Source: Lophium mytilinum | Lineage: Eukaryota | Assembly (NCBI GenBank): GCA_010093605.1 | Contig: MU004186.1 | Location: 265,765 to 329,764, forward strand | Length of the DNA: 64,000 bases | Reading direction: 5' to 3' | Part shown: piece by piece, positions 2,876 to 50,639 of the stretch | Layout of the letters: the number at the start of each line of letters is the position of its first letter | How positions within the stretch are numbered: position 1 is the first letter of the stretch | The notes under the pieces: model-generated | Database searches by the model: none | Told to the model about the DNA's origin: nothing | Seen by the model: the letters and a program-made list of their open reading frames with translations, nothing else | Program-made: the position numbers and the translations under genes

Positions 2876-4480
2876 TTTCGCTGATATTAAGGGCAGGCGG
2901 TGGACAAGTAGACTTTTGCAGTTCTGAAGTGTTGGCGGCTGATGTTTTTCCGGATAATCTCGGTGTGAATCTGATGATCAATAAGGAGTGGAGTAATAGA
3001 TGTAGTACATCAGACAAGACGTGTTAAGTATTGATACAAGAGGAAAAGAAGGCTGCCAGAGCCAAAGAGAATCGAAGGTAAGTGAACGAAGATAAGAGAA
3101 AAAGAAAGGGTAGACTTCCAGAGTCGAGAATCAGGCAGATGAACGCTTGCTGGTTGAAGGAACTATTGGGCGGTGTCCCTTCGAGTTTATATCCTCCCAT
3201 ATACCTATGCCTGCCACACGGGCGATCATAAAGTCCTATTCCGTCGACGTTAGTCCTCAGGAGGATCGAGCACATCAAACATATGCCCCTGTGGTCATCA
3301 GGCCTAGACAGGAACTGAAGACACGAACTAGCGGCATGCAGGCTATGATTCATGTTGGAGAACTCCGTTGCAACCAAAGCAGGAAAAGAGAAAAGGAATA
3401 TACACTAATGTCGAACACCCCGGACAGAGTCTAGGGCATGAGTTGGTACCTGACGGGGATGGCACGGCTGCATGGATCTATTCCACATGGCGGCTGGCGT
3501 AACGGCTCAACAGCCTTCATGCGGAGTGTTCCATGCCATAAAGCAAAACTAATACCGGCCATCCCTATAGCTATTATTACCTGAGCTATCAGATAGTATC
3601 TAGATCATATACCGAGGCTCTCTTTGGCAGGTCTGGCTGGGCTCGAGATTTTAGTAGCGACGTGCGAGATGAGACTTCTCGCTGGCTGCTCCCTGGTGTC
3701 ACTCGTCGGAACCACGTCTGCGGGATCCTTCTCTTAGGAAGGCCAGGCTCGCGCGGTTGAAACTAGAGCTCCTGCAGCATCTGGAGCGCAAGTCGAAACG
3801 GTGAGGTTGAGGATAAATGAAGGAAGCGTAGTGGCATTCTGGAGGCAGGCAACTAGGCGATCTGAAACAGCCGCTGGAAAGACCCCAGCGGACCTACCGT
3901 TGCGAAGGGCGCGCCTAGGAAGGTGGGACAAGCGGGCGATGCCTTCCGACGGGCGCAAATATACGCGGGACGCTGCCTGCTTGCGTCGCAGCCATTGAAA
4001 CTTATCTGAAACCTGATATAGCCCCGGGTTTGACGGTGGCGAGTGGCATCGCCGTCCCGCCTCTCCAACGTCCCTACCATCGCTTTCTTCGTTGGCTCGT
4101 GTCTGAGGTGTTGAATATACACTGACGATGGGTGCATTTCGACGTCCCGTGGGTGGTGATGTCGCGACTCTGACGCGAATGGCTGAGGTCTCTTTAAGGT
4201 TCCCGGTGCGCGAATCAGGCGAACTTGGCGACCCTTGGGACGCGCAGAACAACGGCCAATGGCTTCAATGGAATTTGCACAGCCTGCTTGCAGGTCCACG
4301 GGTTGCTGGCTATGCGGCAGAGCGGTCGTCAGCCTTGTCCGCAGTCTTCTCGTAACGTTGCCAGCCACCTCGCTGCTCCCGTCCAAACTCCATCAAACAC
4401 TCTTCCCGGCGCCCAGCTTTGTCCTGAGATTTCCGTACGACTCGCGCTGGACGCAGAGTGGCCTTAATCTTTGAAACGCC

Positions 4481-7400
4481 ATGTCATCTGACCTCAGGAT
4501 GGATGCCATGCCCCCAAGAACTTCAGTCGCAGAACTCGCCCGTCGTGCCGGCATCAGCCCTCCTGTCAGCCGTCAGCCGTGTCTCTCCGCTCCCTCGAAT
4601 CCCCCACCACGAGTCGCGGATGAAGACCGCGCTCAGGCTCGGAATCTACTTAGCGAGCAGCGCAAGGGAAAGCCTGGGTATAAGGAGCCAGACAAGCAGC
4701 TGAAACGCATCTTCAGGTCCTCCAAGGTGAACGAGCAGCTCGGTGATCCGAACCACTGGACATTCTCCCAAGAGGAATTAGACGAGGCACTACTAGGACT
4801 ACTAAACGGCCACCCACGACCATCATTAGTGCAGGCACTCCTAGACCTAGGCGCTAGCGTCAATATCGTCGAGGCATCCAACGACAAGACGAAGAAGAAA
4901 AATGACAGCCTCAAGAGACGCAGTACCGTTCTCCAGCGGGCCACCTCTCGGCGCAATTTTGCGTCTGTCAGTCTCCTGGCAAGTAGTGGTGCCGACAGGC
5001 AAACGTTAAACGACGGCCTCAAAGTTGCCCTAGCGGCAAAGGATCTGTCGTGTATTGAAGAGTTGCTGCGACATGGTGCAGATATAAACCAACATAACGA
5101 CGGCTTCACACAGGCTGTAGCTTCCGCGGACCTCGCGCTTCTACAACTGTTACTTCGCGCACCTCAACCTCCGACTCCAGATCTCGTCTCACGATCTCTC
5201 CATCTTGCCGCCCAATTTCAATCTGTTCCCACAGTATGCTTGCTGATTACCTATGGCGCGGACCCGAACCACCACGATGCGTCGGCCTTCAAGCAGGCCC
5301 TCTCGACTCGAAATTATCACCTAGCCTTGGCAATAGCTCGTAGTCCCATTGCTATTACGCCTCAATCTCTGCAAGGCACCTTCGACATCGTCTTACGGAA
5401 TCCAGACCAAGCAATATTAGAAGACTTCATCGAGCTTCTGCTAGCCTGTGGCCTACCTTCCAACATGGACGGTATCTCTCGCCTACTCGTTTTCGCTGCG
5501 AAAAGTAATCGAATAAGTTTTGCGCGCAAGCTCGTCAGTAATGGGGTATCACCAGACTACAATGGCGCGGAGAGCCTCAAGCGTGCCATCTCAGAATGTA
5601 ACTGGCTAATGGTAGATATCTTGCTCTCTGGCACCATCTCACGCATAAACGCCTCAGACGCTGTGGCATCAATTCCCGCAAGAATCAGCCGGCAAGAAAG
5701 GCTGTCTATTATCGACAAATTGGCGCAAAGAGGGGCCACAGGAGTACCACTCGGGGAATTCCTCATTGTTGCCGCTGAAGAAGATGACCTCGAGTTGCTC
5801 TCACTTCTTGTTCGCCTCGGAGCCCCATTAGAGAACAGAAGTAACCGAGCACTTCTCTCAGTCATTGCCACGCGAGATCTTCGAAAACTCAGGCTTCTCC
5901 TGCACCTGGAGGCTACCCCAACAGCGCTAAGCCAACTGTTTCCATTGCTTCGCCAAGGATACACAAGGCCCGAACGACTCGATGCCAGCAGGCTTCTGCT
6001 CGAGGCTGGTGCAAAGGGGCGTGAGGTCGATCAGGCTCTTGTTGATGCCGTAGCAGATACCACTCCATCAAGAGACTTTGCTCTCATTGAGCTACTTCGA
6101 TCTAGAGCAGACGTTGACTGCGAGGAAGGAATGAGTCTTGTTCTGGCCATTCAGCAGAAAGACCTGTCCGTTATTCGAAGCCTGTGCGTTGCAGGGCCCT
6201 CTGTTTTCACCGTTTCGAAAGCCTTGCCACTCGCATTCGGAGTGGATGGTTTGACGGCGTCTGAGGTCCTCCGCATCGTCGAGTTGCTTTTACCACTTAG
6301 ACCTTCCAGCGAGTCCGTGGCGCAAGCTGTCACTCTCGCAGTAGGTGGAGGCTCCCAGAATATTGAAGTCATCGCCCACCTTGTGGGGAACGATGCTGTA
6401 TTGGGTGGTCTTGCGTTTCGGGCCGCCCTGAGGTTGACGAGCGTAGAGGAGAAGTTGAGAATACTATCCAACCTTCTTCCAGGATCCTTGCCATCTGAAG
6501 AGATCGGGAGAGCTCTGATTGCGGAAACGCAAACGGCAGTGCATAGCAATGTCTTTACTCTAGTCCAACTACTTTTGCACAATGGAGCCCCTGTAGACTT
6601 CAACGAGGGCGAGGCGCTGCGAATTGCCGCAGCTTCTTCATCCGTTCGGCTGTTGGATGTGCTATTGAACACTGGCCGGCGGCCACAAACCTTGTCAGTG
6701 ACAAAGGCCTTTCGGGCGCTTATGCACGACGATGGCTCCCAGAAAAACCAAGAGTCGGTACAAGTTGCAGAACTACTACTTAAAAGAGGAGTTGATCAGC
6801 CTGCTATAGATTCCGGACTACGTTCTACCCTTGACGAGCTCTCTTGGGGGAGCAGCTCTGGACAAATGGTGGACCTCTTACTAGACCACCACGCAAACGT
6901 CAATACAGCCGATGGCACCTGCTTTACCTTTGCGGCTCGAACCAACGCTCTCGATTTATTTGCCAAGCTACTGGCACATGACCCGGACTACAGAGTCATT
7001 GTTCCTAGCCTACTAGGCTCCGGTCTAGATGAGCCCTCTCTTGTCCCTGCTCTGAAGAGTTGTTTCGAGAATGGATGCCCTCCTGCACTACTCGACTTAT
7101 GTGGGCGAGGCAAAGACCCCCCATTGGTCGTCGCGATGCGAGACTACCCGCGAGGCAAGTCGCTAGTATCTCTGCTATTAACGCATGGATGTACCCCAGA
7201 TATTGCCACAAAACATGTTCTCGACCATGACATAGGCGAGGAAGCGATCTCTGCACTACTCTGGGCCCTCGACCAACCGCAAAAGAAGATTTCCACCAAT
7301 GTTATTCAGGCCCTCCTTGAAGCTGGATGTAAGTAATCTGTCCACTTCTTACCTAACTTTGACTAATTCAGCATGTAGCCTCACCTCTCCGTCGGTCTCC

Positions 7401-8634
7401 TCGATCTGATATATCCCCGCTCACCCTTGCTGCTCGTGAAGCACGTCCGGAAATTGTCGCCGAATTGCTTGCACGCGGCGCTGAACCTTCCTTCAGAGAC
7501 AGCTCAAACCGCTCTGTGCTATTTTACGCGAGCAGCAAACCCGTTCCCAGCATCGTCAAGTCTCTTTGCGAAGCCAAGGCTTTGAGAGACGACGGCAGCT
7601 TACACGAAGCAGCATGCTCACTGCAGCTAGGCAACGCTTCTCTGCTTCTCGAGCATGGCCACAAACCAAACTTTCCTTCTAGGCTGCATGGTGGTCGGAG
7701 TGCTCTCGGCCAACTGTGTTTGGGAGCTGAAGTCACCAATTCAGATCAGCGGACTAAACTACGACAGATGATTCGGTTGCTCTTAGACGCCGGCGCGAAC
7801 GCAAAATTCCGAGCCCGCGACCAGAAATCCGTGGTTATATTGGCTCTCGACAACCCTCACCACGCAGTGGAGGTGACTGACGCCCTTCTCGAGACCGAAG
7901 TATGGGAGGACTTGAATGATGATAAACACCTCTATCATGACGACGCCGGCTACTGCTACTCGCCGCTCAAGTACGCAGAGCTGATGCCACGGCCTGGGCG
8001 TGACGCGCAGAAGCGTGAGCTCATGGAAGTCCTGATAGACAAGGCATGCGTTCCAAAGTTCTACGCCGAGGAAGGAGAGCAACCTGCCGGTGCCGTCGGA
8101 TTACCAGCACATCTAGCTCGTATAGCCGCTCGGAGGGCCGAGCAGAGGACTGCGATGCAGCTGGAACGCGAAGCAGACGAACATACACGACGTTTAGCGG
8201 AGACCAAGCATCTAGACGATATTCGTAGAACAAGGGAGAGAGAATTGGCGGCGCAGGCTGCCCTACAGAACACGCACGCTGTGCAAGCGCGACTAGAGGC
8301 GGCGAAGCACGACTCGGAGATCCGCCGGATTCGAGAGGCGGAGAGGGTGAAGAGGGACCAGCGGCAAGAATATGCGAATCAACAGCTGCAGATTGAGGAG
8401 CGCGAAGGAGCTGCTACGTACCAGCGCGAGCAGCTATTCATTGAGCAGCGGAGGAAGGAATTGGACTATAGGAACTCGGCTGAGCAAAGGGCTCTTTTGG
8501 ATAAGGAGAAGGTGTTTGAGCGGAATGTGCAACGGCAGAAGGCGTTGATCGATCGGAACGATCAGAGTGCGAGGCTTCATGCGAAGCTGCAGCAGGAGAA
8601 GCCGAATCAGTTGTATCTTGAGCAGCCTGATTAG
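4481..8634 (+). CDS. Large ankyrin-repeat protein (about 1370 aa) with a C-terminal charged coiled coil; one intron 7329-7378
   Basis: Many degenerate ANK units (LLRHGADIN, LITYGADPN, LLHNGAPVDFNEGEAL, LLDHHANVN, LLDAGANAK). A GTAAGT...CTAAT...TAG intron joins the 951-aa and 389-aa ORFs in frame. Tail is E/R/Q-rich. Confidence 0.85.
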
Positions 8635-17520: not shown

Positions 17521-18152
17521 CCGAAGACGTTTTTGTATTGTACTGTACTAACATTTTCATAGTTGATGGAGCTTCACATAGTGCGTGCATCCTTTGCAGG
17601 CGATCATCCATCTCAATTCAACGTCACCTCCGAACTACATTTGTCAATGTCGGATGCGGTCAAAAGAAACTGGGCTGAAAGTTTGAGAGAGTGCTTGAGA
17701 AACCACACGTCCCCACAGCTTTCATTCACTTGTCCAAAATCGCCATCTTACAGGGACTAAATGTTACATTCACTATATTTTCCTTCTGGCGCAGGTGAAA
17801 GTTCGCCGTTGGCTGTGAACAGAGAGCATTGTCGAAAGGAATGATGGCGAAAAAAAGGATACAATGCAGAGACACTGACGGCCAACACCTTCACAATACA
17901 TGCATCAGACAGACTTTTCGCCCAGAATGCAGAAACGTGTATACACAATACTCCGAAAACCACAGTATAAGGAGGCGGTTGTCCGCTCTTGGGCCATTTT
18001 TTCTCACATCAGTTCTGATCTGCAAATATCAGAAGCAGTTGTCCGTCTTTCAAGCTCTCAGAATTAGACCTCTGGACCTCTCAGTCAGCAAGAAACCCAC
18101 GCAAGTTCTCACAATACATTCGTCAAGTCAACCGTCCCGTCACACTCCAGAT

Positions 18153-19085
18153 ATGCCGCATTCGCAAGACACATACCATTCCTATCGCGGGGGACATTCC
18201 GTTCCCGGTGAGCAGATGCTAGAGACATACACTGCACCGCGCCATGAGCTTGGACCCCCTCAGCGTCGCATTCGAGCGGCTGGAGCTCCACGCGATCAGA
18301 TGCGAGAGGCTTCCACGATACCTATCCCTGGATCTCGACCTCAGCATCGCGTACATACAGCTGAAGTACCACGCAATCAGGTGCGAGTGGTGCCTACGAT
18401 ACCTCTCCATGAGCCTCAACCACAGCGTCGCGTTCAGCTAGCTGAAGCTCTACGCAGTCAGGTGCGAGAGGCCTCTATGTTACCTCTCTATGAACCTCAA
18501 CCACATCGTCGCGTACGACCAGCTGAAGCTCCACGTGATCAGATGCTAGAGACATACTCGATGCCTCGCAGTGAGCCCCAACCACAGCGCCGTGTACCGA
18601 TAGCTGAAGCTCCACGCAATCAGGGGCGAGATATCGAGTATGTCTCTCGCCCTGCCCTTGGACCCCTGCATGTACCTGAGGCTCCGGGCCGCCCAATCAC
18701 CGCTCCAGCTGCTCCAGTCGCTCTACCTCAGACGCAAGAGCAGATGTCCACTATTCAGGCCCGTCTACGAAAGCGGCTCCTCAAGGAACGAACTCCTCGG
18801 CATCTACGTCGATTCAATTCCGATAAAGGACCGCGAATTCATCCTCATGAGAATCCGAAACACGCGCGCTTCTGGTGTAGCGATGATGGTCTCGTGCAGA
18901 GCCATGTGCCAAACCCCGCCATTACGTTCGAAGGGTTCCTTAAGCCACATGAACACACTACCATGGATCAATGGGAATACCATCAGTCGAAGCGAGGCAA
19001 CGCGAAGCGATACTGGGACAAGTTCGTGCAAAAGGTAACCAAACCTTTCCGAAACACTCGTCAAGCCGATCCAGGCCAGGAATAG
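18153..19085 (+). CDS. Orphan Pro/Arg-rich protein with about 5.5 tandem 27-aa repeats
   Basis: ATG at 18153. Repeat consensus xQ(M/V)RExxxxPxxEPQPQRRVxxAEAPR is also visible as about 81-nt DNA repeats at 18210-18630. Confidence 0.65.
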   Translation: MPHSQDTYHSYRGGHSVPGEQMLETYTAPRHELGPPQRRIRAAGAPRDQMREASTIPIPGSRPQHRVHTAEVPRNQVRVVPTIPLHEPQPQRRVQLAEALRSQVREASMLPLYEPQPHRRVRPAEAPRDQMLETYSMPRSEPQPQRRVPIAEAPRNQGRDIEYVSRPALGPLHVPEAPGRPITAPAAPVALPQTQEQMSTIQARLRKRLLKERTPRHLRRFNSDKGPRIHPHENPKHARFWCSDDGLVQSHVPNPAITFEGFLKPHEHTTMDQWEYHQSKRGNAKRYWDKFVQKVTKPFRNTRQADPGQE

Positions 19086-19135
19086 AGTGATCGTGTAAGG
19101 CATCTGATCTTCCTCTGGCTGGGTTTCTGCTGACT

Positions 19136-19210
19136 TGGCACCAAAATCTTTGCGGACATAGCATCACAATCTTTGCAAACTGCGGACATGGCACCACAAT
19201 CTTTGCAAAC
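19136..19210. repeat. Imperfect tandem repeat, about 3 units of TGGCACCACAATCTTTGC(AAACTGC)GGACA
   Basis: Read directly from the sequence, downstream of the repeat-protein gene. Confidence 0.75.
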
Positions 19211-19761
19211 GCGTCGTTCGGTGGCTCTAAATGTTTCGAGCATTCGCTGTTAGTGTCTTCGAGTACGTTTCTTGTACTGTTACGTTCAGTTTTTTTCCCT
19301 TGGCCGTCAGAAAATCTGGCGGTTTTTTGGCTGTGCGTCTGCTAATTTGGCAAACAAATACTCTGCGAAGCGAACATTTTCGGCGCAATGCTCTGGATCG
19401 TTCTCTGTGAGTGATCTTTTTGTAAGATCCTCACTCTCTCTAGAATAAAACCTCTACCCCCCTTATATATGACTTCCGAACATCTTGCTGATGTATTTTC
19501 GAAACCATCGACGCAACTTGAAATCTTTGAAGAGATTTAGTTCAACGAATAGTCTACGCGGACCCAGGGGTCATGCAGAGCGAAGAGATGTCTTTTCAGG
19601 CTTGTTCTCGGCGCCTCTTTCTTCGTCCTATATAACGTGGTGAATGGATATAATATAGTGACAGAAACAATCTGACGAGAGAACCGGAGATGCGGGAAGT
19701 GAGCTCCCTGAAATGTTTTGGCTTTATAGATATGAAGGTTGGCAAAGTACATTTACATATC

Positions 19762-19846
19762 ACTAAATACGATAGTGCGCTCACATATTACTAATTACGA
19801 TAGTACGTTCACATATTACTAGTTACCATAGTGTCTTCACAATACT
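19762..19846. repeat. 28-bp tandem repeat x3 (ACTAATTACGATAGTACGTTCACATATT-like)
   Basis: Three imperfect copies just upstream of a CATATAAAG box near 19882. Confidence 0.75.
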
Positions 19847-40580: not shown

Positions 40581-41469
40581 GATAGATTGATAGAGGTCTC
40601 TTTGATTGCCGCAATGTCTCCAAAGTATCTTTGAGAAGGGTTGATGAAGGAAGTCTTGTGTATGAGTATCTAGGAAGGGAATTTTATGCTCGGTTTGTTC
40701 AAGACGAAGCATCTTGACTGCCTGCCTGGGGGGCAACTTATATAGAGTATTTAAGAGCTTAAGCATCAAGGCAATTGGGCCAGCATATCGAGTGCGGACT
40801 CCCAGATGACAGCGCGCCATATCTCGAGTGAGGGACGACGTGGCGATGGCCTCCTTTACGAGCCTGTCACTGTTAGATTTATTCTTAGGCCAATGAGTGC
40901 GATTCATCTTATGGTTGCACAGTCCGGGAGCCGACTAAAAGCAGCGCGATGATTGCTAGGGTCCGCAGGAGTTAGATAGAGGCGTATATCCCGTTTGCGA
41001 GAGCGGTGAACAGCGTATGTAGTTGATAGCTTTCAGTGTTATATTAGTGTAAGATTCCCCGAAAAAAACTGATCCAGAAGGCCTCATTGGCGCATTGCAA
41101 GACTTGGATTTTGAGGTGCTCGTCATGTAGTCTCTAAACGGGGCGTTACGACCTGTATTTTATTGCATTCGAATCCCTGGACTGTGATCAGCTGCGAGGA
41201 GCCCGCTGAGGCGTACGCGCTGTCTCGAAGTGGCTTCCCGAAACACCACCTGCATTGCAAGAAGAAGGCAAAGAAACAGATTCGACGTTCTAGTACTTGC
41301 TAACCGCAAGGCAACTGGTTTCTGCACGCAATGCAGTGCCGGGTGGCCCATTCACGTCCGCGATACCCCGTCGGGCGACCAACCCCCCTGCGAGAATCCG
41401 AGGCTCGATGTTGCCCTGCTGCGGGGACACCGCCTGAGCGGTAACCTGCGGCCACGAGCATCACTAGTA

Positions 41470-41806
41470 CAGTAAACCCCCGTTATAGTGATACGGGTTT
41501 TTGCAAGGGGGTGTGTCACTGTACAGAGAGTATCACTGTATCCAATGTCACGTGTTGGAGATTTGTAAGCCAGACGCCTCCCAAAACACCGAAATTAGGG
41601 GGTTCTAGGGAGGGTTAGAGGTACCACGGACCACCCGCCCATACAAAAATCACCCCTGGTTAGTGTGATCTTGGTGAGCGGGGGCTTATGATACCATAGT
41701 AACCAGCTTATTACTATTCCCATACAAAAACGTACGGTCAGCCGAAATATATCACTCTATAGAGAATATCACTGTATCGCGAAAACACTATAAGGGGGGT
41801 TTACTG
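41470..41806. mobile_element. 337-bp MITE, Tc1/mariner-pogo type
   Basis: 21-bp TIRs CAGTAAACCCCC(G/C)TTATAGTG with 1 mismatch; TA TSD at 41468-69 and 41807-08; internal repeated ATCACTGTATC motifs; no ORF. Confidence 0.9.
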
Positions 41807-42819
41807 TACTCGAGTGAGGAGCCTAGCCACTTCAGTCCACCACGGCACATACGGCCTGACGGTCAGACGCCTCTGGCCGCGAACCCTTCGGACCAGCAGC
41901 GGATCCCAAACCTTAAGGCAGCAACAAGGTATGTTTTTCTTACAGGGGACGGTAATCTATGTTCGGCATGCCATAAGCTGGAGAGAGCTTCATACCGTGT
42001 TCCTGAAGGACACTCCTCATCTTCTCTTGGCCAGCCCCTTGGCCCATCTCGTAGTTGACGTATACTGTGAACATTGGGTGAACATGACTCTTTCACCGTA
42101 TGAATGCTAGCTTGGCCATCTAAACCGGCTCCATAAATGCTCAGTGCTATCGGGATGGGGACCGGCAGAAACTTATGCATCTCGACTGTTGAATTCATTT
42201 GGTCTGTAATTTGACCTTTGAACATGAAAACACCTGTATTCTATTAGCCGTGAAGCTCGACAACGTGAGGTAAAGAAAATGGCCTGTACGATACCTACTA
42301 GATACCGCGTGGGGTGTAGTGTCGTGCGTGAGGTGCAGACGTAGTTGCGGCACAGGGAGATTTATTCTCACGAGCGAGCCGCCCTACGTGTCTCGCCCAA
42401 ATCACAAGAGCCACAACCGTTTCCGCAGCGCTCAACGCCGCTTTACATACGATCGGGCTTATCGGTTCACATACACGACATTCTTGACTGCACAGCAGCC
42501 TATTGCCGCTTTACTCCACGGCTTCCATGCAGGCCATGCAGGCCATGCGGCACACGCCACTCCCCTAAATTTGACCTGCACTCCACGCCCCAGCGAGCAG
42601 CTGGGAGGCTGGAGAGCAGAGCAGAATCGCGTGCGAGGTGGGCAGTCTTGACATGCGTTGGCGTGGTGCGTCTCACCTCGCGCCCTGCCGCAGGCAGCGC
42701 AATGCAGTAATTTGGATTAAATGGCAATTTGATAGCCGGGCGAGCGAACCTTGAATTTCTCCTGTTTCGCTACCGGCTCAATCTCCCGTTGCGGAAAGAA
42801 ACAGACATGCCGGCAGCGT

Positions 42820-43254
42820 CACAGTACCGTATACTTTCTGCATATCGAGACGCCAGTCTTGGCAAGCCCGCTGATCCTCTAAACTCAACAGCGTTGGGAA
42901 GTGGGTCCTAGCGGTGGTGTCAGGCCAACTCAGGGGGTGGGTGGCCCACAATTCAGCTCGCTGGCGTTGACCTGATACGCTGAAAATTTATGCTTGAGAT
43001 AGCGCTGCCAAGACTGGCGTCCCGATATGCAGAAAGTATACGGTAGGCAAAGCCTGTTGTGTCGCTGTTGAAATTCTTCTATCCCTCAGAACACCACAAC
43101 AACGAGCTAAAACTTCATGAAGAGTGGCTAGACTTCTAGAGCAAGGCCGTCGTCATTAATTTTGCAATTTTTCTTGATAGAATTGACCATCATTTAATGG
43201 TTCTAGGGTTTTTCCTTTCGGCCCCCACCGACATCACGGACTTCGCTCACTGTG
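42820..43254. mobile_element. CAC-ended MITE copy 1 (216 bp once the nested insertion is removed), 4-bp TSD GCGT
   Basis: gcgt|CACAGTA[nested MITE]GGCAAAGCC...CTTCGCTCACTGTG|gcgt; about 92% identical to 46103-46318. Confidence 0.88.
42827..43043. mobile_element. 217-bp MITE with CCGTA ends (Tc1/mariner-pogo/Tc2 type), nested in the left TIR of the CAC element
   Basis: TIRs of about 36 bp, CCGTATACTTTCTGCATATCG(A/G)GACGCCAGTCTTGGCA; TA TSD at 42825-26 and 43044-45; the empty site is visible in copy 2. Confidence 0.92.
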
Positions 43255-43548
43255 GCGTGGTGAATCCAGATCTACCATCACACCGGTCTGTCACATTGAC
43301 CACACGACTGCCCAGTAGTGTCATCGTCATCAGCCATTTTAAACCTCATACATCGTGCCAATGCGGGCCAACCTTTTGACCGTACGTTGAGGCGCGAGTC
43401 CCTCCTCCAGGCCTCCCGCCTCACCCGTCCCGCCAGAGCTATCTCGCCGCCCGCATGCTCCGCCGTCCCGTCCTGCATCATCTTTTTCCCCACGTCCCCG
43501 AGTCTCGGCCGACCCGCCTGCTCTTGCTCTGTAAGTACTGAAGTGCTG

Positions 43549-43588
43549 CAAGGACTACCAAGGACTACCAAGGACTACCAAGGACTAC
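43549..43588. repeat. Minisatellite (CAAGGACTAC) x4
   Basis: Four perfect 10-bp units. Confidence 0.9.
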
Positions 43589-44027
43589 AGCATATCGCCC
43601 AACAGCACCATGAATCCTAAAGCCCCTGAAACCTCTTTGCTTTTCCAGTAATCATTAACCGATCCGCCTAGCACTATGCCACCAGGCTTCGAGTATATCT
43701 AGAAGGGAAGGATGCATTCTGATGCCGATCCCCGAACATCGAGAAGCAGGCTTGACACAGCGATGCCAAATGGGCATTGGTGGTGGCTCTCTAATTTACT
43801 CGTTGCATCACTTAACACTTTCCGGTCAGTCTCTTGACATATCAGACTATGCACACATATTTGAGATGCTTCGACTGTTACTTCATTTCACAAGTAACTA
43901 AGATTGAGTCCTTAATCGTCCCCGCATACTTGATGTGTTTCCCACGCTGAACAAACGACCCTTCGAGCATCCTTTTCTCTAGGCCACCTTGTTATAAAGA
44001 TTGAGACTCTCAAAGGCATACCTCAAC

Positions 44028-45362
44028 TCAGACATTTCCAAAACCCTCCCTCTCCGAATGCGTCTGCCGATACTTCTCCGAACTCAACTCCTTCGCAAGC
44101 CCACTCTGCATATGCCCCGAGCTATGCGGCAGCCAATTAGGATCCTTCACCTGCACACCTTTCTCCTCTGGATCCTCGCCCTCGATCACAGTATCGCGAT
44201 GACTACTCGTACCCGCACCATTAGCTTGGTTGCCCGCAGTGACAACCTGCTGCTGGTTGTTGCTCCGCCGCATGGGCCCACCCGCCTCGAGTGCTGTCTC
44301 GATGTTGCCAATGTTGAAGTCGATCTCGACGTTACCCTCGCCGGTGAGGTAGAGGTACCAGTATGGGAGACCGACAAAGACAGCGCCGCCAATGATGTTG
44401 CCGAGAGTGGTAGGTATCAAGGACTTCCAGATATAGTACCCGACGCTTATTGGGGCGCCTTCCCAGATGCCCATGGGGACGAAATACCTAGTGGTGGTAT
44501 CAGGACTGACGTCTTTTGACAGTAGAGGCTAGTTGACAGTAGAGGCTTGGTATGAAAGGTGGCACATACATGTTCGCAACAACATGATCGAAAGCGCAAG
44601 CCACAAAAGTTGCCGTAGGCCACCAGATCGCCGTAACCTTACTCACGATCTCGCGACTGCTAATACTTAGAAAGACAGCAAGGCAAACCAGCCAATTCGC
44701 CGCGATCGCTCGTAGGAAGATCTGGTGCCATTGCGGATTGTGCGCCTTTTGCATCGCGATGGTAACTGCGGTTTCGGTGTAGCCAGGAGTTTCGGAGAAG
44801 AGACCGCCATAGCCGGTGATAATGGCCATGAAGAAGAGCATCCCACCGAGGTTGCCGAAGAAAGAGATGAACCAGATTTTGAGAACGTCGATAATGGAGA
44901 CGCGGCGGTGGAGGTAGGCGATCGTCATGAACTGCGACTTGTGAGATGGGGATTTTTCAAGGATGTCGAGCGACCTTCTTACCATGATGTTGCTCGTGAA
45001 GAGATCCGCGCCTGTCAGCACGATCATTACGAGACCGACGGGAAAGAGGAGGGCTCCCAATGTGCGAATCAGCCCGGGACTACACAACTCAGTTACTCGA
45101 TCTGGTTGTCATTAAAGAATCTGGAAAGGCTCACGCATTTTCCTGGTACCACGGAGAAGAACTTGTACTAATCAGGACTGCACATCTGGAACTAAAGTCA
45201 GTAGGTTGGTCACAAGGTTAATATTGAGCTCACTTACCCGAATCCAAGTAACGGGCCGGCCATGCACGAGTTGACGAACAATTTGTCAAGCCTCATATGC
45301 GCTTTCTTCGTGCCTATGCGAGAGCATAGCTCGACCGTTTGCTGCGTCGTGAATGCATCCAT
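44028..45362 (-). CDS. Formate/nitrite transporter (FNT) family channel; multiple introns
   Basis: MDAFTTQQTVELCSRIGTKKAHMRLDK, LFPVGLVMIVLTGADLFTSN, SFFGNLGG, AIAANWLVCLA, FDHVVANM, PTTLGNIIGG. Confidence 0.92.
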
Positions 45363-46102
45363 TCTAGAAGGTGGCGCTCAGTCTCTGCTTTGCGAATTGG
45401 GTGGACTGTCGCTGGCATACGCAAATCGAGAAATCTCAAACGATAGGAACGTAGAAGAGAAGAAATAGTACAACCCAGGCTCATGAAATTAGTTCTAACT
45501 CTGCACATATGTATGTATAATGGAGAAAGCCTCCACGGGTAGTGCTCCGGTAGTCTACCGAACGAAGTAAAGCACGCTTGGTACTGCACCAGCGCCGATC
45601 ACATCAAGCAGATCTCTACTTTAGATCCCATGGGATTTCAGAATACCATAAGATCAAGGGCGGAGATAGTCTCCAGATGATGGTGATATACACTGTTTTA
45701 TTCCGAAAGTAGATACCATGTGGGAGTACCCCTGCAATGGATCACGGCAATCTACGATCAATCTTGTATAACATCAATGTTTAGTTCCGGAGAAGCATGC
45801 GATAGAGAGGGAGTTGACGTCACTACCCATCCTTAGGGTGCGATAGGAGAAATTCTTGAGCGAACGTTGAAGCGCTGATAAGCACCCGCTTCGATATGCC
45901 GCAGTAGTGTCGATTGAGCCGCCGATCGGTACGCGGTTAGTGGTTGACGTAGCCAGCGGGCTCCAGTGCGAATTCCGCAACGGCTACATTGCTAGAAAGT
46001 ACAACACAGGCTACTCATTTAAAACGCTAAGAGTTCTTAAGAAGAATGTTTCCAGCTGTTCTATTAATGTTCAGTTCTTCTTCCAGAACCAGTCAACACC
46101 CC

Positions 46103-46318
46103 CACAGTAGGCGAAGCCTGTCGTGTCGCTGTTGAAATTCTTCTATCCCTCAGAACACCACAACAACGAGCTGAAACTTTATAAAGAGTGGCTAGACTTC
46201 TAGAGCGAGGCCGTCTTCATTGATGTTGCAACTTTTCTTGATGGAATTAACCATCGTTTAATAATTCTAGGGTTTTTCCTTTCGGCCCCAACCAACATCA
46301 CGGACTTCGCTCACTGTG
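46103..46318. mobile_element. CAC-ended MITE copy 2 (216 bp), 4-bp TSD CCCC
   Basis: cccc|CACAGTAGGCGAAGCC...GGACTTCGCTCACTGTG|cccc; imperfect TIRs of about 26 bp. Confidence 0.88.
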
Positions 46319-46495
46319 CCCCCATAACTGAAGCGGCAGGTCGGTCACCGTCCGTGCCAACCTAACCTTCTACTACGGCACGCGCCACGCCATGCTGCTA
46401 TCTTATATCTATAGTCTACCACCCTTAAAATATAGAAGCTGTAAAGCAGTAGAATAGCGGTAAGTAGAACAGAGAACTAGTAAAGGCTTGGGTCG

Positions 46496-49400
46496 TCAAG
46501 AGCGGGCAGCGTACGGCTGCAACAGCTCAACTATAGCCGTGTAGCCCTCCTCTATCGCCAGTGACCACGGACTTCGTCCGTATCGATCTGTTGAATGGAC
46601 ATCAACCTTGCCCGTCTTGAGCAACATTCCGATTATATCCTCGGAACGACGCAGATTCGTCTCCATTCCCGCATGAATTACCCTATGCATCAGCGGCGTG
46701 CGTCCATATTTATCCTTTAGATCAACGTCAACCTGGCCTGTGTTAAGTAGCGTTTTGAGTGCATTGACATTACATGCGAGACCCGCCGCGTGCGATAGTG
46801 GTGTCTGTCCGACCTCATCCTGTGAGTTGACATCAACTTGGCCTGTGTTGAGTAGTAGCTCGAGTTTCGAGCCGTTATTGGACCCTGTCGCGTATGAGAG
46901 TGGCGTACGCCCGTTGTTGTCCTTCAAGTCAACGTTGACCTGGCCTGTATCAAGTAGCATCTTGAACGTTGTGGCACCTAATTTTGTACCCGCCGCGTGT
47001 GATAGCAGCGTCCAACCTTTCTCATCTTTAGAGTCGGCGTCAAGCTGACCAGTGTCGAGCAACAGCTTAACAATGTCTTCATAGCCCCAACTTGCTGCTA
47101 ATGCTGCAGCATGCGATAATCGTGTCCGTCCATCCTTGTGCTTTGAATCAAAGTCGACTTGACCTGTGTCGAGTAGCTGCTTGACCATGGCTGCGTTGCC
47201 AGCTGTAACAGCGTAAAAGAATGGTGTACATCCGTCTACATCTTCTGAGTTGACGTTGACTTGGCCTGTTTTGAGGAGTAGCTTGACTATAGCTGCATGA
47301 CCCTCTCCAGCAGCTTGGCAAAGTGGAGTGATTTTATCATCGAAATCCTTAGAGTCGGCGACAAACTTTCCTGTCTCAAGCGCGATAGTAAATAACACCT
47401 CATCTCCAAGTTCCGCTAGAAATGAGAGTATGGATTTGTGCTTTGGAAACTCGAACTTCCGACTAAACTCGAGATGAATTTTATCTGCTCCGTTCACGTA
47501 CTGCCGGCTGTCATCATAACAATACTGGCTGCACATCTTACAAAACTCGCTATCCAGACACTGTGTTGAGGCGTAATTTTGCACAAAAGATTGGATAGCT
47601 TCTTTGCTTTTGGTTGCTAGGGATGCGTAAAGGGGAAGTCCATAACGCTCGTTCTCCACTTGAAGAAATGATTGGATCGATGGATGGACTCGAATAAGGT
47701 TCGACATGTTATGCTCTGCCAATAAATACAGAAGACTCGCATGTTTTGTATGTCTTCGTACTTGAGCCTTTTCGAGCAGATTGTCGTATTGGATCCAACG
47801 CTCAAGCGGGAAGTTCTGAAAAAGATTTTCCTGATTGATACCACATTCTACAGCTAGATCTGCATGGTAAAGCACATTACGCACGGCATAATCCAGAAGT
47901 GGAAATGCTCTAGTAGCTGCTTGGCGGTGGTCTTTAGCTTCTTGCGATGAAGCTTTTGGAAGACTATCAGGCAGCTTCAGCAGGGGAAAAACGTCGATGT
48001 TGATATAGTTGAGACAGCAATTCTTCAGCCGCTCATGACTTTGACCATGAAAGTTTCTGCTAAGCTCGGGCCATATTTTTCCAAGCCCGTCCTCTTCTAG
48101 GAGAAAGTCCCTCACCGATTCGTGGATGAATTGGACTTTTTGAATCTCCGATGTTGTAACTTCCACGAATCCTTTAGAAGTATTGAGTATAAATCTCTCC
48201 ATGACGTTTCTTGTGATCTTGTTAGGAACCCACGTTGATAGGGTATCAGGCTCGACTCCAAAAAGAATAGCGTAGTATAGCTCCACTGGACTTAACGGCC
48301 GCTTCGAGAAGAGAACCCACTGAACACACAGAACTAACTCGCCTTGATTGTCCGAGTCGCGCGTTAAAATATCGCGGAAAAGATCGTGCAAGTCGCTAGG
48401 AGTTTCCCGGAGTCTCCGCTGAAGCACGTGCATGTTACCAGCATCGTGTTCCTTGTTTAGTATCCTTACAACCAGAACGACCCACATAAAGATCCCCGAG
48501 GCCTTTTCTTGAAGTTCTGTTCGAATCTGCTCAGCGGGCTCACTGTCCCCAATTTTTAACTCGCTATTGAGGTAGTTTGTAATATCCTGGCCGTGCCCTT
48601 CTTGCCCTTCTAGAACCAGATCAAGGCTTTTCCGGATTGAGATGTGTGGGTAGTGCCTGCTAGCAAAACAGATGTGGAATTTGCCGTCGGCTGACATGGC
48701 ACGCGCGTTAAGACTTCCAAAGAAGGAGATCATGTCCCGGATCTGAAATTCCTCGCATTCATCCAAGGCGTCTATGAAACATACCACGGAGGACTGCCCA
48801 AGACTTTGTATAGCTTCTTTCAACAGCGTTTCCAGTGATTCAACGCTCCATGGGTGGTGTGTGCTGATGTTCGAGGTCGAGAGATCAAGCGAGTCAAAGA
48901 CGCAGTCGAGATTTGGGAGCCTTTCGAGAAGTTGCAGTAGGAGCGACCTGTATGCCCCAACTGTCGACTTTTCTAAAGCCTCGCCTCGCGCATTGAAGAA
49001 GAATGAGATGACGATCCTGCCCTTCATCTTCTTGCGGGCGTTGGTAAGAGCAAATTTCATTAAAGTTGACTTTCCAGACCCAGGGTGCCCTTTGATCCAC
49101 AAGAAGCCGAGGTGCTCGCCCCGTTCAGTAGCATCAAGCCAGTCGGCATACTTGGGATTTCTCAGCAGCCATTCACAAGTCTCAGTGTGGGCGTTCTTGA
49201 TGGTCGTTCGGCGCGCATCGATTTGGTCAAATCTTAGCGAATCTAGTAGCATCATCTTTTGCTCCTGGGTAAGAAGCAACTTCTCTCCTGTTCTAAACCG
49301 ATGAGAGTCTGGATAGGTCAGCTTCACTTGTACATACATGGTAATATTGCCCACTATATGTCTACGTACGGGATATGCTTCGCTGCTGATCCTGCTGGTG

Positions 49401-50639
49401 CGATAGAGCAGCGGTAGTAGATGTAGCGTCGGCATGCCAAGCTACATCTTTCGCCCACCGCGAAAGCTCTCCAGCGACTGCCGTAAACCCGGGGTCGTCT
49501 TCGCTCTCGAACTTTGTCATATCCATGTGATTACTCCGAATACCGATAGGAATATACCCAGGGAGAATAGCCGAGTGTCGCGGGACTACCTGTTACAACC
49601 GTCAGAACACAGGATTATTGTAAAGTCTTGGACTTCACGTACCTCGCCAATGCTTGGTAGAGGCAACTCCTCGTAGAAGCAAGTGATCTCGATGGGCCGA
49701 AGACCTTCCTTGCTCCGCGACCTGATCATAGTATGGAATCCATCCTGAATACGCGCAAGGACCTCAGAGTCTCTCTTTAGGACAGCGATAATCTCAGGGT
49801 TTGTCTGCTTTAGTACGCCAATTGACCTGGCAATCTGTTCTGCCCATTGTGCTAGGCCAGAGCCGTGGTGGGGAGTGCCTAGGAATACAATGCCGTGAGT
49901 TGAGTGAAGGATGCTTCGTAGGTGATCCTCCGGCCTCTGTCCCGCCTGAACTAAAGCCTAAGGTAGAATTTAGCCTGATAACCTTGCATCAGAACTTGAT
50001 CACATACGTCTTCGCACACCAGTCCGCCTAGGCTATGGCATACGAAGATGATTGGGCGGGTGTCCTACTAGTGTGAGCCGCGGTCTCAGAATATCGTTGC
50101 ATGAGGGCCTCACGGTATTATCTTTCCCTCTATGTGTCGCAACGGCGGAAAGTAGGTTCATGGCATGATTTCCAATTCTATTCTTCGACACCATGCCTTT
50201 CCAGTCCGAGACGTATGCGTCGTACCCGAACGTGAGGATGCGAGTATTGGGGACTTTGGCGGCGAGTAGGGTGTGAGGCCATGGTGAAGCTGCACCCTTC
50301 GCCGTCCATGTTTTTTCGCGGTCCCCAGTGAGACCGTGCACAAATATGATACTATCAAGGTAGAATGGCAAGTTAACATAGTTAAGGGCCGATCGAAGGG
50401 TAGTATTCGAGGCAGGCTAATTGGTGCTATATAAAGCATTCGGCAAATAAGCCTGCCAATGCCCAGACAGCGAAACTGACTTACTCTACGACGCTGTTCT
50501 CCGATGCGTGAAGCAGCTTGATTCCAGAAGGAAAGCTCTTTCTACGTTTTCCAGATGTGCTACTTGTAGAAGACGAGGTGCTTCGCTCTGCGTCTTCAGC
50601 CTTCCGCTTAGAACCAAGGAACCAGCGCACGCTCTCCAT
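46496..50639 (-). CDS. NLR-like protein: SesB-like alpha/beta hydrolase + NACHT + ankyrin repeats; about 5 introns in the 5' part
   Basis: IIFVHGLTGDREKTW, PIIFVCHSLGGLV, GIVFLGTPHHGS, NHMDMTKF; Walker A GHPGSGKS; Walker B CFIDALDEC; KASGIFMWV; QFIHESVRDFL; about 8 ANK repeats of type LLDTGQVDVDSKDxxGRTPLSHAA. An intron at about 49309-49369 links the hydrolase exons to the 979-aa ORF. Confidence 0.88.

Follow-up and report, generated by a model that had tools for sequence, protein, structure and literature searches.

The locus at positions 46103 to 46318 raises the question of which transposase moved a short inverted-repeat element with CACAGT-type ends through the genome of an ascomycete. 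By the window we mean the whole stretch of DNA that was analysed, 64 kb in length (G000:C6:265765-329764). A first-pass annotation had noticed two 216-bp copies of the element in the window, had taken their different 4-bp duplications (GCGT and CCCC) as signs of independent transposition events, and had proposed a Chapaev- or Transib-like source.

Structure of the element and its genomic copies

The focal copy, which is 216 bp long and lies on the plus strand, reads CCCC, CACAGTAGGCGAAG...CTTCGCTCACTGTG, CCCC, with its left TSD at 46099 to 46102 and its right TSD at 46319 to 46322. The left TIR (CACAGTAGGCGAAG..., 46103 to 46128, plus strand) and the right TIR (CACAGTGAGCGAAG... read inward, 46293 to 46318, minus strand) matched at 12 of 14 and 19 of 26 positions, in agreement with the imperfect TIRs of about 26 bp first reported; each proved to be the outer portion of a longer degenerate inverted half, about 105 nt on the left (46103 to 46208) and about 108 nt on the right (46211 to 46318). 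The second copy (42820 to 43254, plus strand; TSD GCGT at 42816 to 42819 and 43255 to 43258) is broken 7 bp inside its left end by an unrelated 217-bp MITE (42827 to 43043) whose ends read CCGTA, whose TIRs measure 38 bp, and which duplicated a TA (42825 to 42826 and 43044 to 43045). Removal of the nested element and one TA from the 435 bp of this copy leaves 216 bp. Over 215 nt it shares 92% identity with the focal copy, and the coordinates, lengths, termini, and TSDs of the pair were all as originally described. The CCCC duplication, taken alone, reads equally well as 2, 3, or 4 bp. The focal copy is non-coding, its longest stop-free frame being 38 aa. We rejected a reading as structured RNA: Rfam gave no match in window positions 41000 to 46600, and the focal copy folded no better than its shuffled versions (z −1.5). 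Subfamily B (see below) did fold better than its shuffles (z −8.0), because of its TIRs.

When the 216-mer was used in a BLAST search of the genome (43.4 Mb in 49 contigs), it matched at seven places on six contigs, all of them full length and 91 to 100% identical to the query. These copies, which we call family A, range from 214 to 217 bp (n=7) and share pairwise identities of 90.7 to 97.2%. The annotation's 4-bp GC-rich TSD was consistent among them, for tabulation gave an exact 4-bp duplication in 7/7 and a 5-bp duplication in none; the TSDs (CCCC, GCGT, ATGC, CCGG, CCGG, GCGC, and GCCC) comprise six different sequences, the flanks differ between copies, and homology ends at the termini. 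End-pattern searches yielded sister subfamilies B to E: subfamily B (237 to 239 bp; three full copies with TSDs CAGG, GTGG, and GTTA/GTTG), subfamily C (249 bp; GCCC), subfamily D (216 bp; CTAG/CTGG), and subfamily E (305 bp, including a tandem duplication within the element; GGGC). The wider group thus spans 214 to 305 bp and five subfamilies, with 13 two-ended genomic copies; three further copies are partial and their TSDs unreadable. The duplication in the subfamily E copy (G000:C2:1307047) is about 73 bp long and repeats the left end motif.

Across the two-ended genomic copies the TSD was an exact 4 bp in 11/13, had one G/A mismatch in 2/13, and was never an exact 5 bp (0/13), so that the length seen in the window held for the other copies as well. 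When one metagenome copy (described below) was added to these 13, 47 of 56 TSD letters were G or C, relative to 49% in the flanks, and the CA..TG termini were intact at both ends in 12 of the 14; D carries one RIP-type change and E is decayed. An exact 3-bp duplication was present in one of the 14, the CCCC homopolymer. Subfamilies A to E are homologous along their full length, and each element consists of two degenerate inverted halves of about 100 to 115 nt with the TIR as the outer portion. The halves of all subfamilies align, sharing a conserved CACAGTRRGCGAAG end and an inner motif resembling GAAAAAGT; AAGGCA repeats occur in B and C. This two-halves layout suggests that the TIRs of the parent elements were long and imperfect, and that little besides them survived in the MITEs. 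The group amplified in several waves, and its members are MITEs, being short, non-coding, TIR-bounded, dispersed, length-uniform copies with TSDs. These results established the termini, the constant 4-bp TSD, the copy number, the GC-rich target bias, and the homology between subfamilies.

Among the differences of family A copies from their majority sequence, 29/47 were C:G to T:A changes, 13 of them at CpA and 9 at CpG, a pattern consistent with RIP-type decay; AT-rich blocks of RIP type are present in the genome and, together with its gene content, suggest a filamentous ascomycete. The most diverged copies were the two in the window, with 10 and 11 differences, as RIP acting on linked copies would lead one to expect.

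Search for an autonomous partner and for relatives elsewhere

The annotation had reported no transposase in the window, and Pfam likewise gave no transposase-family match among the 53 window ORFs of at least 150 aa. BLAST searches of the genome with family A (7 places) and family B (5 places) revealed no long element. The genome was then covered with six end patterns (exact, mismatch, and RIP-tolerant). Matches relative to a control pattern numbered 44 versus 34, 50 versus 27, and 27 versus 4, and for the RIP-tolerant patterns 15 versus 1, 11 versus 22, and 38 versus 19; no long element bearing the family ends was among them, and unpaired end matches were inspected for most entries, those at C13:1310282, C18:388229, C18:794697, and C22:137398 excepted. 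A profile of the half-element, run across 100 loci (428 kb), found only MITE halves, and it had no match in five RIP blocks (200 kb). Searches of the genome with PF02992 (Transposase_21) and PF20231 (DUF6589) gave no matches, and since their controls were equally silent neither search proves anything; PF18759 gave 16 matches to Plavaka relics, and the blocks around several of these contained no family ends. As the profile scans covered parts of the genome and the assembly contains N stretches, a partner that is diverged, heavily RIP-mutated, or masked could still be present. With no transposase found in these searches, it is by ends and TSD that the elements are placed in a superfamily.

Among sequencing runs, the stretch was present only in the genome's own sample, which is not an independent source. 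Depth in the own-sample contigs was 722 to 1362 inside the element versus 138 in the flanks (X1), values that do not give a copy number; among the contigs listed, loose ends pointed outward only and none lay inside the element.

In metagenome contigs, a 22-mer had no match and a two-ended pattern matched 115 loci, 80 of which were taken into a similarity check; a 4-bp duplication was found at two of the 115. One of these, L236 (Ga0307515_10000583), is a homologue of 228 bp that carries the exact TSD GCTG, shares 68% identity over 177 nt (E 2.5e-12) with family A, and resembles B and C too. Its contig bears a RabGAP-TBC gene and looks fungal; one L236 reading frame, looked up exactly, gave no match. 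These findings confirmed that the two-copy observation extends to a group of five subfamilies with a relative in a metagenome contig. The other, L168, was rejected: its flanks mirror each other, and it does not resemble the family. Viral contigs gave 0 and 25 loci and prokaryote genomes 0 and 4; we dismissed these 29 loci as chance, for they match only the first 25 to 54 profile positions, which are largely the selected pattern itself. Three AT-rich metagenome contigs (L180, L182, and L210) carried short CACAGTG-ended elements, unlike the family, with duplications of 3 bp (TAA/TTA) or 5 bp (TGGAT); these may be MITEs from other eukaryotes, of Chapaev3-like and Transib-like kinds.

Candidate transposases

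We consider that the MITEs were probably mobilised by an enzyme of some kind from the CMCT clade, judging by the ends and TSDs. This clade includes EnSpm/CACTA, Mirage, Chapaev, Transib, Plavaka, and ESTA, together with Lanisha, its transposases have C(2)C and H(3-4)H motifs, and its lineages have CA..TG ends and TSDs of 2 to 5 bp (Kojima 2025, PMC12730594), so that both the termini of the MITEs and their 4-bp TSD fall inside the described range. The CAC/GTG ends and 3- to 4-bp TSDs that are hallmarks of Chapaev (PMC4079192) agree with the same assignment. There is also an ascomycete precedent: Sly1-1 of Neurospora crassa is an 11.5-kb, two-gene autonomous CMC element with a TSD of at least 3 nt and has homologues in Chaetomium and Coccidioides (Wang 2015, PMC4592977). 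On the other side, the assignment to a family uses traits, ends and TSD, that are labile, and a 2026 preprint holds that TSD and TIR should not outrank transposase homology (10.64898/2026.08.26.747230). Moreover, the fungal members for which the sources at hand give a readable TSD have 2 to 3 bp or TA rather than 4 bp: EnSpm has 3 bp, Plavaka 2 to 3 bp, and ESTA TA (PMC12730594), whereas the MITEs have 4 bp and are known apart from any transposase. Thus the CAC..GTG termini of fungal EnSpm fit the MITEs and its 3-bp TSD does not, and the fungal CMC elements CNEST and CNIRT6 of Cryptococcus neoformans, whose TIRs also start with CAC (CACGG and CACTG; PMC12810828), differ in their TA and 3-bp TSDs and in their basidiomycete host.

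The nearest candidate for the partner is an ascomycete element of the Sly1 type, on the basis of its description rather than its TIR and TSD letters. Sly1-1 resembles the MITEs as an ascomycete TIR transposon of the CMC group that has a TSD of at least 3 nt and is subject to RIP, and differs as an 11.5-kb autonomous element from short MITEs. Were the partner Sly1-like, the group would give a fungal family that is known, though poorly annotated, a terminal signature and apparently its first MITEs. CMC elements were thus already described in ascomycetes (Sly1-1), and the broad clan in fungi; the statement that such a lineage is rarely reported in ascomycetes goes too far when applied to the whole clan, Sly1-1 being CMC (PMC4592977) and fungal Transib-like proteins being on record (PMC9435367). 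In the mainly open literature, Repbase and Dfam aside, no fungal family was described as having CACAGT ends together with 4-bp TSDs, and the available portions of PMC4455052, PMC6004678, PMC11969663 and its supplement, PMC4522978, and PMC3627910 contained no match to the group.

DDE transposases pair the ends in trans, excise the element, and join both 3′ ends to the target across a stagger. The course of events that we infer for the group would then be as follows, the inference taking in the family of the enzyme, the sites that it bound, and the disappearance of the partner. Each MITE is a non-autonomous cut-and-paste element made of two joined degenerate transposon ends of about 105 to 115 nt, and the group, with at least five subfamilies in the genome, would be old. 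A DDE transposase acting in trans would bind the CACAGTRRGCGAAG ends and, probably, the inner motifs conserved around positions 30 to 45 and 85 to 100 as well. It would cleave at the exact CAC..GTG termini, excise the element, and join the 3′ GTG ends to a GC-rich target with a 4-nt stagger, repair of which would leave the 4-bp duplication. The partner may since have been lost, with the remaining MITEs decaying by RIP-type mutation.

A narrower form of the CMCT reading, that the mobiliser was a true Chapaev-lineage or true Transib/RAG-lineage transposase in an ascomycete, appears rather unlikely to us. The first-pass annotation had based its Chapaev or Transib signature on the CAC..GTG ends and the TSD; the ends do fit the CMC/Transib clan, but any step to a named lineage is putative at best, since the searches yielded no transposase and the length of the TSD is labile within these lineages. 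For Chapaev, the invariant CAC/GTG termini and a 4-bp TSD inside the 3- to 4-bp range agree with the hallmarks (PMC4079192), a likeness of ends and TSDs; but that paper concerns animals, with no occurrence of "fung" in its available text, and Chapaev3 targets TWA in contrast to the GC-rich targets of the MITEs. For Transib and RAG, in which a 5-bp TSD, GC-rich targets, and a heptamer-spacer-nonamer arrangement are described (PMC1131882), the CACAGTG heptamers at some MITE ends and the GC-rich targets are points of resemblance. However, the MITE TSD is 4 bp, a 5-bp TSD being found in 0/14 copies, and the second conserved block, GCGAAG, stands directly behind the heptamer. The heptamer, too, was correctly noticed at the right end, which is exactly CACAGTG, but the left end reads CACAGTA. 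CACAGTG occurs four times in the 64-kb window, and in the group it is present at one end of A and at both ends of B and C. A nonamer at a spacing of 12 or 23 was absent: the best match among 11 ends examined was 6/9, and the ends of family A gave 1 to 4 of 9. The right end of A does have a 7/9 nonamer match, at a spacing of 32, which is not kept in other subfamilies. We therefore rejected an RSS-type heptamer-spacer-nonamer, the heptamer alone being present; the heptamer is all that links these ends to RAG, and their likeness to an RSS is weak.

The published record for Transib in fungi points both ways. A 2017 survey found CMC broadly distributed in fungi and Transib absent (Muszewska 2017, PMC5751038), but 20 fungal Transib-like proteins were later reported, with Erysiphe pulchra named in a tree legend (Tao 2022, PMC9435367). 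Nor is the 5-bp TSD invariable, as 3-bp and TA duplications are described for Transib relatives and exceptions to 5 bp for one Transib lineage (10.64898/2026.08.26.747230). If the partner were Chapaev or Transib proper, lineages that centre on animals and are linked with the origin of RAG1 would reach into filamentous ascomycetes.

Tc1-type TIRs start with CAGT. The ends could therefore be read as CA followed by CAGT.., the flanking TA having been absorbed by an atypical Tc1/IS630-type transposase that duplicates a different target of 4 to 5 bp. Long degenerate inverted halves with inner motifs are compatible with such an enzyme, and if it were the partner the TA rule of the superfamily would be broken. 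We regard this reading as distinctly unlikely, since every intact copy has its 4-bp duplication outside the invariant CA, where canonical TA-targeting chemistry gives none, and the TSDs are 4 bp and GC-rich instead of the TA of Tc1/mariner. When 1.29 Mb of sequence (overlaps included) were scanned for TIR pairs that end in CA and carry 3- to 6-bp duplications, subfamilies B and C alone were returned. It is conceivable, and we suggest it only tentatively, that the group marks an ascomycete transposon lineage not yet described, one that combines CACAGTG ends resembling an RSS with a strict GC-rich TSD of 4 bp; its enzyme would be a true relative of Chapaev or of Transib/RAG in Pezizomycotina, or else one of Tc1 type that has abandoned TA targeting.

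We think it quite improbable that the ends belong to some other or unnamed DDE superfamily and resemble CMCT by coincidence. A terminal match of three to six letters carries little information, as this reading requires; but the known elements with 4-bp TSDs in the source consulted target AT-rich sites, AWWT for Sola2 and TTAN for viral elements (PMC3627910), and CAC..GTG ends are tied to CMC/Transib (PMC12730594, PMC6004678, PMC4079192). Chance or segmental duplication, to which the mere 3 kb between the window copies might have pointed, is refuted by the seven copies on six contigs with different flanks, exact duplications, and homology ending at the termini, and by the 27 end-motif matches versus 4 for the control pattern, and the independence of the insertions claimed in the annotation stands.

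With a CMCT-clade enzyme as the preferred reading, the exact ends and TSD of this well-defined, low-copy MITE group provide a probe for the autonomous partner in fungal genomes; without the enzyme, the result is one at the level of annotation.

Neighbouring elements and genes

The CCGTA-ended MITE nested in the second copy (42827 to 43043) had 33 matches in the genome, with TA on both sides in six of the seven checked. Its ends match those of a 30.7-kb RIP-damaged, TA-flanked element (G000:C13:1213522-1244267) that holds a Plavaka-type transposase relic (C13:1223431-1223928), and the nested MITE may thus be CMCT-derived rather than of Tc1/mariner origin. At 41468 to 41808 of the window there is a further small TIR element with 25-nt arms and internal repeats (TA, CAGTAAACCCCC...GGGGTTTACTG, TA), which looks like a TA-targeting MITE; with this third TIR element, the region contains four MITE insertions within 5 kb.

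The neighbours of the focal MITE are a formate/nitrite transporter gene (about 44000 to 45200, minus strand) and a NACHT-type/ankyrin gene (46496 to 49441, minus strand). The latter, an NLR-like gene with a NACHT-type (NPHP3_N) domain and ankyrin repeats, ends roughly 180 bp from the MITE, and there are other reading frames with ankyrin repeats at 4475 to 8634 (plus strand). Elsewhere in the window, a 428-aa reading frame at 17799 to 19085, for which Pfam gave no match, contains an 81-bp tandem repeat (about 18200 to 18650), and shorter tandem repeats of 30 bp and 28 bp lie at 19128 to 19210 and 19746 to 19829, respectively.
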